The notes beneath the pieces are model-generated. The model worked only from the letters and a program-made list of their open reading frames with translations, ran no database searches and had not been told where the DNA came from. Below are positions 2,777-22,604 of a DNA stretch of 64,000 nt, piece by piece. The DNA is from an uncultured Gammaproteobacteria bacterium (GTDB lineage: Bacteria > Pseudomonadota > Gammaproteobacteria > DRLM01). Location: NCBI GenBank assembly GCA_963729605.1, contig CAVSNY010000005.1, positions 210,118 through 274,117 on the forward strand, in the 5' to 3' direction. The position numbers and the translations under genes are program-made. The first letter of the stretch is position 1. Every line of letters begins with the position of its first letter.

Positions 2777-3808
2777 TCATTCGCCGCCGCGTTCCTTGAA
2801 GACCTTTTCCAAGCGCCGCAGGCGGCGCGCCATGTCATCGAGCTGATGAAACCGCGCATAATTTTTCCGCCAGTCGCGATTGGGTTCCAGCGGCGTCCCC
2901 GACGAATACAAACCGGGTTCGCGGATGGAATGCGCGACGAACGACATGCCGGTGATGTGCACGTCATCCGCGATCTCGGTGTGGCCGACGATGCCGACGC
3001 CGCCGCCGATGGTGCAGCGCGCGCCGATCCGGGCACTGCCGGCGATGCCCGTGCAGCCGGCGATCGCGGTGTGCGCGCCGATGCGCACATTGTGAGCCAC
3101 TTGAATCTGATTATCTAGCTTCACTCCGTCTTCGATGACGGTATCGTCCAGCGTGCCCCGGTCGATGGTGGTATTGGCTCCGATCTCCACATCGTCGCCG
3201 ATAGTGACGGCGCCCAACTGCGGTACCTTCACCCAGGACCCGCGGGCGTTGGCGAAACCGAAACCGTCGCTGCCGATCACCACCCCCGGGTGGATCACCG
3301 CCCGTTTCCCGATGCGGGTCCGCTCGCCGATCGAGACGTTGGCCGACAAACGGCTGCCTTCGCCGATCTCACTGCCACGCGCGATTACACAGCCCGGACC
3401 GACGGTCACCCCGGCGCCGATGCGCACCTGATCCTCGATCACCGCGTTGGCATCGATCCAGGCGCTGGGATGCACCTCGCTGCCGGGATGCACCACCGCG
3501 CGCGGATGCCGGCCTTCGCTGCGGGGCGGGATCGGCATCAGCAAGGCCGCGATGCGGGCATAGGCCAGATACGGATCGCGCGCCACCAAGGCATGGGTGT
3601 CGCATGCGTCCAGATATTCTTCGGAAAGTATCACCGCGGACGCGGCGGTCGCGGTCAGGTGTTTGGCGTAACGCGGATTGGACAAAAAGGAAATGTCGCC
3701 GGTCTTGGCATTCTGCAGCGTAGCCACCCCGCTGATGACGCAGGCGGCGTCGCCGCGGACCCGCCCTTCCACGTATTCGGCCAGCTGCCCCAAGGTCTGC
3801 ATCGGCAT
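2777..3808 (-). CDS. lpxD: UDP-3-O-(3-hydroxymyristoyl)glucosamine N-acyltransferase
   Basis: [33 protein letters not shown] motifs. Confidence 0.97.
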
Positions 3809-14135: not shown

Positions 14136-14210
14136 GGGTTAAACCTCCATACATCCCATGCAGCAACCCGACGAGCGGGCACCCTGATGCATGTGCCGAT
14201 GTATGTGTGA
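14136..14210 (-). ncRNA. rpsB leader (t44 / S2 autoregulatory RNA)
   Basis: CACACATACATCGGCACATGCATCAGGGTGCC...GCATGGGATGTATGGAGGTTTAACCC matches the known proteobacterial t44 pattern directly upstream of rpsB. Confidence 0.85.
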
Positions 14211-14364
14211 AGTACACCGTGGACGTCGGCTTGGGCGGTATACCCCGCGCCGGCAAAGACGCCGGTTTGAAAAGTATTCGCCTCGGCCATCCGGCCACAG
14301 CAGGTATCGTTAAGTTTACGTACCGCCGGCGGGGTGAAAACACATCACCATATCCCCAGCGATC

Positions 14365-19876: not shown

Positions 19877-19887
19877 AGTCTTTTTCA

Positions 19888-20068
19888 GCCCAACTTAAAT
19901 TAGACATCCTCATTGACGTCTTATAAGGCTTCATCATGTGTTCTAAATCTTTTCCCAGGGTAAAAGTATCCTGCATATCAGCAAGAAAATAAAATTTAGG
20001 GTGCCCTAATTAGAAATGACTAATACGGCAGATCATCCACCTGAGTAGCTCGGCCAGAAAAATTGGGA
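19888..20068 (-). repeat. ~180-bp promoter/attI-like platform, copy 1
   Basis: About 90% identical to 22385-22564; ends GTCTAAT-TTAA-GTTGGGC immediately before a cassette; the -10 box is degenerate (TACCCT). Confidence 0.75.
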
Positions 20069-20069
20069 C

Positions 20070-20192
20070 AGCTCGGTAGAGCGGATGCGTGCAACGCGAT
20101 CCGCCGAATGTGAGCGCCATGTGGCTGCACTCCTAACCTATCTTGCCAAAGCCATGCGGCGGAACGCCCTTTGGGCTTCCGCCCTACGAGCT
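20070..20192. repeat. REPIN-like element, copy 1
   Basis: AGCTCGGTAGAGCGGA...TCCGCCCTACGAGCT; two inverted GTAG hairpins; 3 substitutions and 1 indel versus 21084-21205. Confidence 0.85.
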
Positions 20193-20220: not shown

Positions 20221-20287
20221 AAGCTCAGCCGCGTCTCCGGCGACGCGAAGCGGCGACAGGGGCGTCGGCTGGGGCGCCTTGTTGGGC
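20221..20287 (-). repeat. truncated attC site (R' box missing)
   Basis: GCCCAAC-AAGGCG-CCCCAGCC...GGCTGAG-CTT then unrelated sequence; same family as the attC at 19475 and 23016. Confidence 0.7.
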
Positions 20288-20587
20288 TGCCGCTAGTACT
20301 GCTTGCGCATGCAATTTCAAGCCTAGGGCTTCAATGACCTTGAGGATAGTATCGAAACCAGGGCTTCGTTCTCCAGAGAGTGCCTTATACAAACTTTCGC
20401 GGGAGAGACCGGCGTCACGTGCCACTTGCGACATGCCCTTGGCACGTGCGATGTCACCCAACGCCTTGGCGATAAAAGCGGCATCTCCATTTGCCTCCTC
20501 TAAGCAAGCTTCCAGATAGGCCGCCATTTCTTCCGGAGTGCGGAGGTGTTCGGCAACATCGTAACGACTAGTACGGGTCTTAGTCAT
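20225..20587 (-). CDS. addiction-module antidote protein (HigA-like HTH antitoxin)
   Basis: YDVAEHLRTPEEMAAYL...ALGDIARAKGMSQVARDAGLSRESLYKALS; the C-terminus reads into the attC. Confidence 0.9.
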   Translation of the reverse strand: MTKTRTSRYDVAEHLRTPEEMAAYLEACLEEANGDAAFIAKALGDIARAKGMSQVARDAGLSRESLYKALSGERSPGFDTILKVIEALGLKLHAQAVLAAAQQGAPADAPVAASRRRRRG

Positions 20588-20596
20588 GATGAGTTC

Positions 20597-20887
20597 CTAC
20601 ATGTTACGAGCCAAGCGCAAAGCGGTTTTGATATCACTGGTCTGGCTCCGTTTATCACCGCCCGCCAGGAGAATTAACACCGTGCGGCCATGTTTCTTGT
20701 AATACACCCGGTAGCCGGGGCCGTAATCGATGCGCATCTCCGAGACGCCTTCACCCACGGGCTTAACGTCCCCGGGATTTCCGGCCACCAAGCGTTCGAT
20801 TCGTACCAGAATACGAGCCCGAGCGCGGATATCGGGCAGGCCATCGAGCCACTTGACATAGGCTTCCGTCTTACGGATTTCAATCAT
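20597..20887 (-). CDS. addiction-module killer protein (RelE/ParE/HigB-family toxin)
   Basis: GNPGDVKPVGEGVSEMRIDYGPGYRVYY...LLAGGDK; toxin-first gene order. Confidence 0.9.
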   Translation of the reverse strand: MIEIRKTEAYVKWLDGLPDIRARARILVRIERLVAGNPGDVKPVGEGVSEMRIDYGPGYRVYYKKHGRTVLILLAGGDKRSQTSDIKTALRLARNM

Positions 20888-21012: not shown

Positions 21013-21083
21013 GAATTTGGTGGTACGCTCGTGTGCCGGACGCATGATTTGATTGGAGATGATTCCTGTAAATTAGAACCCGC

Positions 21084-21205
21084 AGCTCGGTAGGGCGGAT
21101 GCGTGCAACGCGATCCGCCGAATGTGAGCGCCGCGTGGCTGCACTCCTAACTATCTTGCCAAAGCCATGCGGCGGAACGCCCTTTGGGCTTCCGCCCTAC
21201 GAGCT
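21084..21205. repeat. REPIN-like element, copy 2
   Basis: Near-identical direct repeat of 20070-20192; abuts and truncates the attC of the upstream cassette. Confidence 0.85.
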
Positions 21206-21217
21206 CTGATAGCGTTA

Positions 21218-21421
21218 TTAGCGTGCATACGCCAACAAACCTGAAAACTGATGCGGAGGGAAGGAATCGAACCCTCCACGTTCTCTCTTGGAAAGAATGT
21301 ATTTGATCACACAACCACCTCTCGTTTGGGTTGGAGTTTTTTCCACCAGGCTCCGCAGGAACGCAGCTCCGCACCAAACACATGCCACAACAAACTGAAC
21401 TATGGCGTTTAAGTTTTTCAT
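21218..21421 (-). CDS. possible small protein (67 aa, hydrophobic N-terminus)
   Basis: GGAGGT RBS 4 nt before the ATG; MKNLNAIVQFVVACVWCGAAFL...; the stop codon falls in the cassette R'' box. Confidence 0.4.
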   Translation of the reverse strand: MKNLNAIVQFVVACVWCGAAFLRSLVEKTPTQTRGGCVIKYILSKRERGGFDSFPPHQFSGLLAYAR

Positions 21422-21524
21422 AATTACCTCCGTCGCCGTTTCAATGAAGCTGTTTACGGAATGGTAGATGTCCAACCCAAACGAGATTTCAATGTGTGCC
21501 TCAATACAAACCCCTTTACCCAAG
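21249..21524 (-). ncRNA. candidate structured RNA (long rod plus tRNA-like T-arm/acceptor 3' end) inside a cassette
   Basis: Perfect 16-bp inverted repeat at 21320-21335/21471-21486, extended by flanking helices with G-U pairs on the minus strand; 3' GAGGG-TTCGATT-CCTTC-CCTCCGC-A-TCA. Confidence 0.5.
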
Positions 21525-21547
21525 CCATTACGATTTGATTGTTACTA

Positions 21548-22380
21548 GAACCTATCTCAAAATTGCCTGAGCAGGATACCGATGGTTGCCAGCTGCACAA
21601 ACCCGAGAAAATTCTCGGCGTAGTATTCCCAACGGACCAGGAGACGACGTTGCCATTGAAGCCAGGCAAAGAAGCGTTCCACCAGCCAGCGTCGTTCGTA
21701 TCGGCGCAGGCGACGCCCGTCTTGTGTCTTGGATTTTACGCGATTCTGCCGGTGCGGCGAGATCATCTCGATGCCCTCTTGCCGCAATTCCTCGTCCAGT
21801 TTGTCGCTGTCGTAGGCACGATCGCCAATCAGATTTTCCGGCTTCGCTTCGATCATGTAGAACTCGAAACTCAGCTGCACCAGCGTGACTTCATGGTGGT
21901 TCGCCGCATGCGTACTGACCGCCAGCGGCAAGCCGTGACGATCCACAATTGCCATGATTTTAACGCCTTTTCCGCGTTTTGTCGGGCCGATCTCCGCGCC
22001 GCCGCCCTTGGCCGAGGCAAACGTGGCATCGATAAAGCATTCCGATTCATCCAGCGCGCCTTCATCGCGCAGCGTGTTGGCGAGAGAGGTCATGACATCA
22101 CGCAGCACTTCGTTGCGGCACCAATTCTGAAAACGGCGATGCACCGTTTTGTAGTTCGGATAGCATTGCGGCAGCATATGCCACTGCGCGCCGGTATTGA
22201 GAATCCAGAGAACGGCATCGAGGACTTGACGGGAAGAAATCGGCTTGCGACCTGCGCGCCCCGCCGCAATGTTTTCCTCCGGAAAGTGTTCCCGGATGCG
22301 TTCCCAGTGTTGGTCGCTCAGCCGTAGCATGCGGCAAATTATATGCGATTCTGCTCAGCTTGTGATTTTGAGATAGGTTC
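21548..22380 (-). mobile_element. IS5-family insertion sequence (833 bp)
   Basis: Perfect 15-bp terminal inverted repeats GAACCTATCTCAAAA / TTTTGAGATAGGTTC flanked by a TA duplication. Confidence 0.92.
21557..22330 (-). CDS. IS5-family transposase
   Basis: LSDQHWERI, TGAQWHMLP, IDAT, GDRAYDSD, YERRWLVERFFAWL (DDE). Confidence 0.93.
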   Translation of the reverse strand: MLRLSDQHWERIREHFPEENIAAGRAGRKPISSRQVLDAVLWILNTGAQWHMLPQCYPNYKTVHRRFQNWCRNEVLRDVMTSLANTLRDEGALDESECFIDATFASAKGGGAEIGPTKRGKGVKIMAIVDRHGLPLAVSTHAANHHEVTLVQLSFEFYMIEAKPENLIGDRAYDSDKLDEELRQEGIEMISPHRQNRVKSKTQDGRRLRRYERRWLVERFFAWLQWQRRLLVRWEYYAENFLGFVQLATIGILLRQF

Positions 22381-22384
22381 TACA

Positions 22385-22564
22385 CGCTAACTTAAATTAG
22401 ACGTCCTAATTGACGTCTTATAAGGGGTCATCATGTGTTCTAAATCTTTTCCCATTGTAAAAGTATCCTGCATATAAGCAAGAAATTAAATTTAGGATGT
22501 CCTAATTAGAAATGGCTAATACGGCAGATCATACACCTGAGCAGCTCGGCCATAAAAAGTGGGA
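22385..22564 (-). repeat. ~180-bp promoter/attI-like platform, copy 2
   Basis: Ends GTCTAAT-TTAA-GTTAGCG; contains TTGCTT-16bp-TACAAT and the palindrome TTAGGA-TG-TCCTAA (22492-22505). Confidence 0.75.
22454..22481 (-). promoter_or_regulatory. putative Pc-like cassette promoter
   Basis: -35 TTGCTT, 16-bp spacer, -10 TACAAT, oriented toward the GTT core site. Confidence 0.6.
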
Positions 22565-22604
22565 AAGATTTATTTATTCGCTCGTCAACCACAAACTACT
22601 ACTC

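Follow-up and report, generated by a model that had tools for sequence, protein, structure and literature searches.

A structured element of about 280 nt, located on the minus strand of the 64,000-nt stretch of DNA analysed here (the window), is an undescribed, widely transferred gene for a hydrophobic protein of roughly 60 residues. Its transcript would combine a long base-paired rod with a tRNA-like 3' end, which suggests a new way to control or process a toxin-like small protein. The reading that we tentatively prefer, with a likelihood somewhat short of even, is that the unit is an mRNA for a fold-back-controlled, toxin-like small protein with a switchable tRNA-like 3' module.

The element is carried in a cassette of a low-GC array. 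On the minus strand this cassette is bounded by GTTAGCGTG (22391-22383), a GTT crossover core followed by AGCGTG, and by CACGCTAAT (21225-21217), the R''-like box complementary to it, both read from the sequence. It qualifies as an integron gene cassette because its 5' junction carries a GTTRRRY core and its 3' side an attC whose R'' box is complementary. The homology of a repeat at 19881-20071 stops precisely at the 5' GTT, and a GTTRRR-type core lies at most 70 nt upstream of the element in 15 of the 22 related loci examined. The cassette is split by an 833-bp insertion sequence (IS; 21548-22380, minus strand), with a TA target duplication at 22382-22381 and 21547-21546 and a 257-aa ORF, 21557-22330(-), that matches DUF4096 (E 4.5e-23), DDE_Tnp_1 (E 4.8e-18) and also DDE_Tnp_1_2. 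A DDE transposase with N-terminal DUF4096, terminal inverted repeats and a short target duplication place it in the IS5 family. This IS is not part of the conserved element; its insertion leaves the element separated from the start of the cassette as well as from any promoter that may lie upstream.

The cassette had been postulated in the earlier note by removing the IS, and the GTTAGCGTG/CACGCTAAT boundaries, the inverted ends and the TA duplication bear this out. At the 3' end the proposed boundary box stands and the account of the attC is corrected, because part of that region is taken by a dispersed 125-nt repeat. The 3' recombination-site region (21077-21225, minus strand) consists of the R''-like CACGCTAATAAC (21225-21214), the palindromic host repeat A (21205-21083) and the next GTT (21079-21077); its R'' part is common to the relatives L030 and L010 and to one metatranscriptome contig. 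Repeat A has five long matches in the host genome (four near-full) and about 20 partial ones, two of which matches sit in an array adjoining a degraded integrase. A search of the genome with TIGR02249 gave no integrase match above the cut-off, and the window array is therefore regarded as a cassette cluster without integrase; a broken N-terminal piece of an integrase lies on another contig (C7:412215-412467).

Genome and metagenome scans retrieved 35 loci, 31 of which, distributed across many phyla, contain the element, as do three IMG/VR contigs, in agreement with the mobility that had been proposed for it. According to database labels, the genomes belong to Gemmatimonadales, Chromatiales, Burkholderiales genera, Methylophilus, Methylobacter, Marinobacterium, Cloacimonadota, Chloroflexota and Gloeobacterales. 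No further copy was detected in the genome of origin or in 11 other genomes of the same family (0/11), and blastn against plasmid and phage record collections gave no match to the element. In relatives ordinary attC sites come separately after the element, and some copies that are not in integrons have a promoter and a terminator of their own. A P2-like prophage holds two copies, inserted between gpA and the portal gene; this gpA-gpQ locus is presented as a hotspot for anti-phage genes (PMC9122126). The putative toxic, decoy or anti-phage roles suggested in the earlier note draw their support from this setting only. Regarding a possible partner gene, a 72-aa ORF occurs upstream of the element only in L049 and L047 and in no other locus, and the membrane ORFs downstream of it in L012, L013, L037 and L042 are not common to one another.

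Stop counts and spacer lengths define a conserved frame of 58 codons running from a TTG (21523-21521) to the codons for LRS (21350-21523, minus strand). Over 23 sequences this frame contains a single stop, against 83 and 41 in the other two frames, and shuffled segments were open with a mean probability of 0.04. Spacers of 65/62/47/74 and 44/41/32 nt are equal modulo 3 up to the motif GCGGAG, with one exception (L025), and every indel within the frame, at least five of them independent, has a length divisible by three. After GCGGAG the spacer occurs in each of the three length classes, the frame being lost exactly at the acceptor strand described below, and the position of the stop differs widely among relatives. 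In the window the frame continues to a TAA (21220-21218), which gives a TTG-initiated ORF of 101 aa (21523-21218). The 67-aa ORF of the earlier note corresponds to the 3' part of this longer frame: the coding part reaches further on the 5' side and less far on the 3' side, where the last ~40 residues of that ORF are not kept in frame in relatives. That note had offered a mobile structured non-coding RNA and a structurally controlled small-protein mRNA (type I toxin-like, tRNA mimic or decoy, possibly anti-phage) as two readings, and with 58 codons conserved a purely non-coding RNA is not supported. Substitutions in the translated alignments are conservative (I/V/L, D/E), and pN/pS is 0.68 in frame compared with 0.87-0.89 out of frame. 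Protein-level selection is weak, and the invariant wobble positions indicate that a large share of the conservation reflects constraint on the RNA. The opposite strand contains no open frame (35, 115 and 67 stops).

The 58-residue core comprises two hydrophobic stretches, (M)EVxVHIE..ISFGL..F.SV and MKNSxA..ACVWCG[AI]AFLRS, and the protein is hydrophobic throughout the set (GRAVY 0.59-1.49). AlphaFold2 predicted a single helix over residues 3-57 with moderate confidence (pLDDT 74.7), a level that does not separate one from two membrane helices. Relatives start at the TTG or at an ATG a few codons upstream, and the window copy lacks the upstream ATG of its closest relative. An internal Shine-Dalgarno (SD) sequence, GGAGGT (21431-21426), and an in-frame ATG (21421-21419) are located in the apical region of the fold (21419-21431, minus strand). 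This ATG is invariant in all 26 sequences and the SD core nearly so, the codon preceding the ATG varies, and the predicted median unpaired probabilities are 0.23 for the SD and 0.59 for the ATG. Pairing of the SD with an anti-SD stretch near helix P7 is retained as no more than an idea: it is 90.9% paired, compared with 56-75% in slid controls, and shows no convincing covariation, and the predicted SD partners differ among relatives. Database proteins form 77 and 19 clusters, all without a name. Gene callers give the long form in most of the 77, many of which terminate as LRSLW-stop, and the other 19 (103-224 aa, no Pfam domain in any) are read as read-through ORFs. The ORFs that gene callers place on the element range from 37 to 224 residues and fall in three frames, an inconsistency to be borne in mind in annotation.

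The minus strand of 21240-21547 folds at -110 kcal/mol, whereas 100 shuffles average -83.2 kcal/mol (sd 4.85) and none is as stable (z -5.52); the plus strand reaches -81.9 kcal/mol (z -2.67). Both the fold and the relatives define a rod (21287-21524, minus strand) in which a coding 5' arm (21524-21471) pairs with a 3' arm situated beyond the conserved frame (21335-21287). From P1 at its foot (CTTGG/CCAAG, 21524-21520 with 21291-21287) to P6, a perfect helix of 16 bp (21486-21471 with 21335-21320), the helices are 79.5-97.7% paired across 26 sequences, and both sides change in 14 of 34 pairs; in L048, a C-G pair of P1 is replaced by U-A. When rod, D-like hairpin, T-arm and acceptor are taken together in the 26 sequences, 95.9% of 1254 cells are paired (45-50% in slid controls) and 21 of 49 pairs show two-sided changes (2-7 in slid controls), with none of 500 shuffles matching the observed values for pairing and two-sided change. 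The long irregular helix of the earlier note is accordingly sound, as every helix listed there is in the minimum-energy fold, most recur as conserved pairs in relatives, and it holds up against shuffled controls and, by its compensatory changes, among homologues. Over 23 sequences the rod pairs include 88 G-U and 11 A-C cells, an asymmetry that favours the coding strand as the RNA, as had been argued from the many G-U pairs. The TTG start is predicted to be mostly paired (median unpaired probability 0.15), and P1-P6 provide, with covariation, the long-range 5'-3' pairing that closes the start region of an mRNA.

The tRNA-like 3' end (21249-21277, minus strand) was recognised from sequence and covariation. 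It comprises a T-arm with a 6-bp T-stem and the 7-nt loop TTCGATT (21277-21259), an acceptor 3' strand CTCCGC (21258-21253), a discriminator A (21252) and a TCA (21251-21249) in the position occupied by CCA in most relatives. Across 26 sequences the T-stem is 96.8% paired, with two-sided change in four of six pairs, the T-loop is TTCRA in 25, and the terminus is N-CCA in 21, so that this part of the earlier description is conserved as well; CCA is absent from the other five, the window copy having TCA. A D-like hairpin (21343-21350, minus strand) reads CC-UGGU-GG in the window and CUC-UGGU-GAG, UCUC-UGGU-GAGA or CUC-AGUAC-GAG in relatives; its helix is 96.8% paired in the 26 sequences, and pair 195:202 is UA in 12 sequences and CG in 11.

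The acceptor 5' strand belongs to a block that is nearly invariant even at wobble positions (21351-21384, minus strand) and is made up of a GGAR/UUCC hairpin around GCGGAG copy 1 (21372-21367), a U at -1 and GCGGAG copy 2 (21356-21351). Copy 2 represents both the acceptor 5' strand and the codons (L)RS, and it has two mutually exclusive partners. With the 3' CUCCGC it forms the acceptor helix (G-C, C-G, G-C, G-C, A-U, G-C), which is paired in 26 of 26 sequences (100%); one G-C pair has a compensated A-U counterpart, and a G-U pair occurs once. With the upstream UUCYGU, which is UUCCGU in the window (21456-21461, minus strand), it forms P7, which lengthens the rod and is 95.5% paired (39-66% in slid controls); this 'anti-acceptor' overlaps the possible anti-SD stretch. 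A G-to-A change of GCGGAG in L043 is compensated in both CUCCGC and P7, and outside L043 the two helices are invariant or changed on one side only. The alternative pairing of the acceptor that the earlier note proposed, there between CTCCGC and either GCGGAG copy, is supported in the form of these two partners of copy 2, and covariation in this one divergent lineage, L043, points to a putative switch. Two other partners were discarded. GCGGAR copy 1 pairs more poorly with the acceptor strand, being GCGGAA or GCGGAT in 20 of 26 sequences, which leaves an A-C or U-C mismatch, and for CTTCGC (columns 65-70) pairing reaches no more than 80.3% and covariation is absent.

In minimum-energy folds of the isolated 3' fragment the acceptor was closed in 23 of 23 sequences and the T hairpin formed in 18 of 23. 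The acceptor helix crosses the rod, and a nested model in which it is imposed is 10-35 kcal/mol less stable, so that the complete RNA may never adopt the tRNA-like state. A minimal substrate of RNase P is an acceptor/T minihelix with a T-loop, NCCA and, preferably, a U at -1, and these determinants are present in the element: 6+6 bp, a UUCRA loop, N-CCA in 21 of 26 copies and an invariant T before GCGGAG.

Concerning transcription, a crude promoter scan of both strands of the L016 cassette found no promoter-like site inside it. The window cassette contains no convincing promoter or terminator, and the promoter-like sites are associated only with the IS, as the one at 22366-22338, or with the flanks. 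In L048 an intrinsic terminator lies about 10 nt past the CCA. Crude promoter scans found no antisense RNA gene for the element, the complementary segment being within the same transcript. As no antisense RNA, internal promoter or partner gene was found, a classical type I pair is not established. Relatives of the element are present as metatranscriptome contigs in four studies, such contigs giving neither strand nor, by their stops or uncovered stretches, RNA ends, and habitats of runs with small shares being left out of account; one of 317 nt has a depth of 583, compared with 42.5 for the contig entering from upstream (about 14x). At 21514 a contig branches into a sequence that we take to be an Illumina adapter, a mere hint of a frequent fragment end.

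Neither the RNA nor the protein could be assigned to a known family, as the earlier note had anticipated. At the gathering threshold, Rfam gave only t44 in the window, located elsewhere; the tRNA model (RF00005) aligned weakly and below threshold (18.1 bits, gathering score 29, E 0.47), and a permissive scan of six relatives gave no tRNA match at E up to 1. The tmRNA model (RF00023) was restricted in relatives to a 17-nt match at the T-loop (14.5 bits, threshold 47). With default settings (tRNA, and tmRNA with -m) ARAGORN called none in 23 elements and none in the window, and its calls at relaxed settings with introns were discarded as mutually inconsistent. For the protein, every Pfam match fell short of the curated cut-off of its family by more than 9 bits (best E 0.025), PADLOC gave no match, NCBIfam gave none except a far-sub-threshold one on L016 (E 0.12, 10.7 bits, cut-off 850), and PHROGs gave only a weak match of unknown function on the L049 copy (E 0.013). 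The host genome has no close tRNA. In the literature covered, which included few subscription journals, no account was found of a tRNA-like or structured small-ORF cassette.

According to the preferred reading, the element would encode a small hydrophobic helical protein whose frame opens at the rod foot and which has a second in-frame SD and ATG. The first half of the coding region would pair beyond the conserved frame into an irregular rod of ~50 bp that buries the TTG. Pairing of GCGGAG with P7 would represent a rod-closed state and its pairing with the 3' CUCCGC a tRNA-like state, and this cis-acting switch may govern the onset and the duration of synthesis of a toxin-like membrane peptide, by analogy with fold-back-inhibited type I mRNAs. 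The tRNA-like state could be read by tRNA-maturation enzymes, with RNase P cutting 5' of GCGGAG, at the end of the conserved frame, and with trimming or repair of the 3' end to give CCA. Every helix and the frame are preserved in the window copy, which has lost the CCA (TCA) and is severed by the IS from upstream transcription.

A more far-reaching proposal, which we regard as quite improbable, is a toxin/antitoxin or abortive-infection module contained in one transcript and driven by tRNA mimicry. The rod would be opened, for instance by ribosomes that follow the nascent RNA or by stress or phage interference, GCGGAG would move from P7 to CUCCGC to build a tRNA-like domain, and RNase P would cleave this at the last conserved codon, giving two RNAs. 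The first would be a non-stop message for the membrane peptide, with its fate set by ribosome rescue, and the second a stable CCA-ended tRNA-like RNA whose exposed 3' arm would be antisense to the 5' coding region of other copies. If true, RNA switches that the tRNA-processing machinery reads would form a new class, carried by integrons and prophage defence hotspots.

Other explanations were weighed against these. The element may be an ordinary small membrane-protein gene in which the rod and the tRNA-like end merely stabilise or punctuate the transcript, with neither switch nor toxicity, a possibility that we regard as rather unlikely. The structure would then block 3' exonucleases or mark the site at which the cassette RNA is excised from a long array transcript; since cassettes have no promoters of their own, long array transcripts are to be expected. 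The hydrophobic protein and the conserved frame agree with such a gene, the ~14x deeper contig in one metatranscriptome fits a stable processed piece, and the L048 terminator about 10 nt after the CCA is also as expected. A stabiliser, however, needs no 50-bp pairing with its own coding region, no start codon buried in P1 and no in-frame acceptor strand with a second conserved partner, and ~35 invariant nt including wobble positions exceed the needs of a terminal hairpin. The RNA itself could also be the effector and the peptide secondary or regulatory, the RNA being a tRNA mimic that is charged, CCA-repaired or bound by tRNA-binding proteins. It would work in a tmRNA-like manner, or else would lure or sense enzymes that attack tRNA and that stem from phages, toxins or defence systems. 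We consider this unlikely. The full minihelix, T-loop, D-like hairpin, discriminator and CCA (21 of 26 copies), the invariance at the RNA level, the self-folding of the 3' fragment (acceptor closed in 23 of 23) and the two copies in a prophage defence hotspot all speak for it, but the element has no equivalent of an anticodon arm and matches no tRNA or tmRNA model, its frame has its own SD and ATG and in this is not like the tag frame of tmRNA, and a 58-codon frame with multiple-of-three indels is left unexplained. This option moreover requires a prior processing step, because the acceptor 5' strand is internal.

That the unit is a pure non-coding RNA with an incidental open frame would account for the invariant wobbles in two blocks, a pN/pS of only 0.68, the loss of the frame after LRS and the scattered stops; it is nevertheless very improbable given the stop counts (1 versus 83 and 41), the open-shuffle probability of 0.04, the conservative substitutions and the fact that at least five indels are all multiples of three. 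Lowest of all stands the view that the element is what is left of a tRNA gene or of a prophage att site, or that it serves cassette recombination as a single-stranded DNA structure; this view is largely refuted here. The 3' ends of tRNAs are common att sites, and the window copy does give a weak full-length tRNA alignment (18.1 bits). The attC sites, moreover, work as folded single strands (PMC5737381, which deals with attC-like motifs only). Against this view, the whole 280-nt unit, beyond its tRNA-like end, is conserved across phyla with compensatory changes, the asymmetry of G-U over A-C favours RNA, attC is separate from the element in relatives, copies outside integrons have their own promoter and terminator, and the host has no close tRNA.

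Several described systems share parts of this architecture. The type I systems hok/sok and Helicobacter pylori aapA1/isoA1 resemble the element in a small hydrophobic helical peptide, in residence on mobile DNA and in a 3' segment that pairs with the 5' translation-start region of a compact mRNA; hok-type mRNAs are subject to fold-back inhibition, and alternative conformations may be expected to gate translation in both cases. In the element, by contrast, the scans revealed no gene for an antisense RNA, the 3' segment has ~50 nt of the coding region itself as its partner and the mRNA ends in a tRNA-like module, and there is no sequence similarity in the libraries used. To our knowledge, no described type I system has an mRNA with a tRNA-like terminal module. 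Like tmRNA, the element unites in one RNA an acceptor/T module (reduced D element, no anticodon arm) and a short frame. Its frame, unlike that of tmRNA, has a normal SD and ATG, and lies 5' of the acceptor strand, which it enters. About 170 nt separate the 5' end from the acceptor 5' strand, which is thus internal, the pseudoknot ring is replaced by a rod, and there is no G3-U70 pair. With tRNA and the 3' tRNA-like structures of plant RNA viruses, it shares a UUCRA T-arm, a 12-bp stacked acceptor, a discriminator and CCA, and with the viral structures also the position at the 3' end of a coding RNA. It differs from this group in having neither anticodon arm nor cloverleaf nor a family-threshold score (RF00005), in being DNA-encoded in bacteria and in forming its acceptor by long-range pairing that crosses another helix. 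As in other integron cassettes, there is a 5' GTT core, an R''-type box and attC after the cargo, and no own promoter; compared with gene-less or small-ORF cassettes, the cargo is a conserved structured RNA plus a small frame and is also found outside integrons. The published work found on gene-less cassettes is reported to concern promoter activity.

Integron arrays hold very many small cassettes without assigned function, and the element stands for a conserved unit of small size, transferred from phylum to phylum, in which a small hydrophobic protein is joined to a tRNA-like 3' end and to base-pairing of the coding region with the 3' part of the mRNA. Should the switch prove real, RNase P and CCA metabolism would be tied to control of a toxin-like peptide, a bacterial, DNA-encoded case would be added to the few mRNAs with tRNA-like ends, and a candidate stabilising or defence function would be provided for cassettes and prophage hotspot genes.

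The low-GC island at 19-25 kb of the window (GC 0.47-0.55 vs 0.60-0.64 alongside) consists of short minus-strand genes with repeats in between, and harbors a mobile unit of about 280 nt which combines a small frame and a rod, both conserved, the rod burying the first start of the frame (TTG at 21523-21521, minus strand, predicted median unpaired probability 0.15), with a tRNA-like 3' module and an acceptor strand that has two partners and lies just where the conserved frame ends. No integron integrase above the family cut-off was found in the whole genome searched, thus the island is a cassette cluster without integrase; a broken integron-integrase piece (C7:412215-412467) adjoins a second array that is located on a different contig. 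Read on the minus strand, the cassette starts at the boundary GTTAGCGTG (22391-22383, read from the sequence), is split by an IS5-family element of 833 bp with a TA duplication (21548-22380, minus), picks up again at 21545 and reaches the box CACGCTAAT (21225-21217, minus), to which its first bases are complementary, as the earlier note had pointed out. The next GTT after the palindromic repeat lies at 21079-21077 (minus).

The neighborhood of the cassette is rich in repeats. An imperfect palindrome of 125 nt occurs at 21205-21083 and 20069-20192 and has five long matches in the genome (four of them near-full) as well as about 20 partial ones; these copies include C7:404263-404390 and C7:406304-406426, and two copies are found within a low-GC minus-strand gene array adjoining the integrase piece. 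The palindrome represents a long attC type that belongs to the host itself or, alternatively, a REP/MITE-like repeat that has spread into attC sites. A non-coding repeat of 190 bp (19881-20071 and 22378-22567, 88-89% identity) lies ahead of a 113-aa ORF cassette at one site and of the studied cassette at the other, and the homology between its copies stops exactly at the GTT crossover. It holds a small palindrome and a pair of internal direct repeats of about 22 nt, and may represent an unusual attC or a cassette without a gene. A toxin-antitoxin-like cassette resembling HigB/HigA (20225-20887, minus; Gp49-like and dnstrm_HI1420 matches) encodes a HigB-type Gp49-like ORF of 96 aa and, after it, an HTH "addiction module antidote" ORF of 120 aa that extends with its 3' end into the attC. 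The sole Rfam match in the window at the gathering threshold is a t44 RNA (14138-14227, minus, 72.2 bits).

The fold of the window copy is real and strand-specific. The minus strand from 21240 to 21547 folds at -110 kcal/mol (z -5.52), a value equaled by none of 100 shuffles, compared with -81.9 kcal/mol (z -2.67) for the plus strand in the same test; the earlier note had proposed this control, and the helices it named are present in the minimum-energy structure. Structure counts were made on an alignment of 26 sequences (A5), and also with 23 sequences and RNAalifold. Among the 26 sequences, 95.9% of 1254 cells of the named structure are paired vs 45-50% in slid controls, and the compensatory changes among homologues on which the earlier note had staked its reading were found in 21 of 49 pairs, changed on both sides, vs 2-7 in slid controls; in none of 500 shuffles did the share of paired cells, the number of both-side changes or the covariation score come up to the observed value. 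The rod is formed by helices P1-P6, which join the 5' arm with the 3' arm, and contains 88 G-U cells vs 11 A-C cells, therefore selection acts on the ORF-strand RNA. The D-like hairpin that follows GCGGAG covaries (UA in 12 sequences, CG in 11), the T-arm has a 6-bp stem with covariation in 4 of 6 pairs and the loop UUCRA in 25/26, and the acceptor, made of CUCCGC (21258-21253) and the second GCGGAG (21356-21351), is paired in 26/26, followed by one unpaired base and then CCA in 21/26. T-stem and acceptor give 12 stacked pairs, as they do in tRNA, and the base preceding GCGGAG is U in all sequences. In two related loci (L030 and L031; position of the element about 40-309) a natural deletion has removed about 30 nt including the T-arm and left the acceptor 3' strand and CCA in place; it apparently runs from one copy of a short direct repeat to the other.

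The same GCGGAG copy pairs with the 5'-arm motif UUCYGU (95.5% paired vs 39-66% slid), which lengthens the rod by helix P7. In the most divergent member (L043), GCGGAG became GCGAAG and both partners show the matching C-to-U change, a double compensation that is suggestive of a switchable strand and comes from one lineage, so that it is not statistical. Rod and acceptor helix cross each other, and enforcing the latter in a nested model costs 10-35 kcal/mol; in the 3' fragment alone, the acceptor closed in 23/23 sequences and the T hairpin in 18/23. Coexistence of rod and acceptor as a pseudoknot appears doubtful on geometric grounds, as short linkers would have to span a helix of about 50 bp.

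The conserved frame extends over 58 codons, from the TTG to the residues LRS. Within each spacer up to GCGGAG, the lengths differ only by multiples of three, being 38 nt from CTTGG to P6 in 23/23, 65, 62, 47 or 74 nt from P6 to the internal ATG, and 44, 41 or 32 nt from this ATG to the TGGTGCGGA block (the single exception, 45 nt, is L025), while all three residue classes occur past GCGGAG. One stop was counted in frame (L021) vs 83 and 41 in the other frames, and shuffled segments would be open with a mean probability of 0.04; from the internal ATG upstream, the frame is open to the alignment start in 20/23. The pN/pS is 0.68 in frame vs 0.87-0.89 out of frame, a weak signal of the kind that an overlap of RNA constraints with a tolerant hydrophobic peptide would be expected to leave. 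The protein is hydrophobic, its profile showing two maxima, and predicted to be helical (pLDDT 74.7). A profile search gathered 77 clusters of 28-102 aa plus 19 of greater length, none of which has a name or a Pfam domain. Many begin a few codons ahead of the TTG, and many end two codons past LRS, within the D-like hairpin; no protein conservation was detected past LRS among the relatives. The internal ATG, preceded by its own SD (the two together at 21431-21419), is invariant (26/26) and the frame read from it ends at 25-47 residues in 16/23 and beyond the tRNA-like end in 7/23; this signal may direct a second, shorter product.

A search with the 101-aa frame found 9 metagenomic ORFs, with their C-terminal parts in three different frames. 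A scan with one genome for each species gave 29 matching stretches, 21 of them confirmed by tblastn, of which 17 contain the whole element (69-90% nucleotide identity) and four only matches of 17-19 residues; 14 further loci, each of which has the element, came from a metagenome scan and 3 more from an IMG/VR DNA-pattern scan. The hosts, as labelled in the records, are highly varied. The element is single in its own genome and missing from 11/11 other genomes of the host's family, and was therefore acquired horizontally. Of 22 loci examined, 15 have a GTTRRR core at most 70 nt ahead of the element (chance rate about 0.2 per locus by the author's estimate), with attC-like sites after the element. 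Contigs binned as Methylophilus and Candidatus Nitrotoga carry identical elements and a Chloroflexota-binned contig differs by one base (L017-L019, about 2975-3279), which reflects either a very recent transfer or a mis-binned mobile contig. At four loci (L012, 540-851; L013; L037; L042, 1272-1598) the element is followed by a membrane-protein ORF of 103-108 aa, with no obvious attC separating the two; the ORF of L042 is not the same as that of the other three. In the Cloacimonadota contig of L021 the element lacks an obvious integron context and has an in-frame TAG replacing the SD; a Moco/tungsten riboswitch (2564-2692, minus, 57.4 bits) is found about 300 nt away from it.

In two collinear P2-like prophage pieces (L047 and L049) the unit is located between a replication gene (Phage_GPA) and the portal gene, with a promoter-like site and a 72-aa ORF ahead and a terminator behind; L048 carries a terminator of its own, about 10 nt past CCA. 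This gpA-gpQ locus of the prophage pieces, which contains old and tin in P2, is presented as a hotspot of anti-phage systems in PMC9122126. The 72-aa ORF (L049 2321-2536, minus; L047 2026-2241, plus), directly upstream of the element, contains an internal repeat (IRVIKAGG/IRIVKAGG), matched phrog_27431, an unknown-function family (E 1.1e-11), and was without a match in Pfam or PADLOC; only in the prophage context might it serve as a partner protein.

Relatives with 90-99% identity are present in metatranscriptome contigs from four studies. In one study, a 317-nt contig over 21227-21514 had a depth of 583 and the contig continuing upstream 42.5, a contrast between contigs without strand or ends, for which DNA carry-over is possible, that fits an accumulated processed or separately made RNA. 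In the assembly graph of a sludge metatranscriptome (run X3; 21485-21534) a branch occurs at 21514, with depth 42.5 upstream and 106 in a putative adapter, presumably of Illumina origin, a hint that fragments often end at this place, some 10 nt into the rod. The window copy has all helices and the frame intact, with TCA in place of CCA, a stop six codons ahead of the TTG (where P0001, a 92% identical relative, starts with Met) and the IS 22 nt upstream of the TTG; this copy may be silent or decaying.

Type I toxin mRNAs include a fold-back-inhibited kind, and by analogy the unit would act like these. The tRNA-like state would give RNase P and the maturation of the 3' end a point of access, with the RNase P cut between the last conserved codons; conservation of the frame would end at these codons because the RNase P cut would fall there. 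The released P7 strand might mask the SD; no covariation was found for this pairing and the predicted SD partners vary among relatives. In logic the nearest systems to the element are type I toxin mRNAs, in parts tmRNA and viral tRNA-like ends; the membership tests of tRNA and tmRNA place it in neither class. The earlier note had not recognized a known family, and this held: no Rfam 15 family matches the element and no Pfam, NCBIfam or PADLOC family matches the protein, PHROGs giving one weak match, to an unknown-function family, for one prophage copy only. No description was found in the literature searched, subscription journals being mostly beyond its coverage. The element is filed as a structurally controlled small-protein mRNA, and its switchable tRNA-like module may prove to be a new kind of component.
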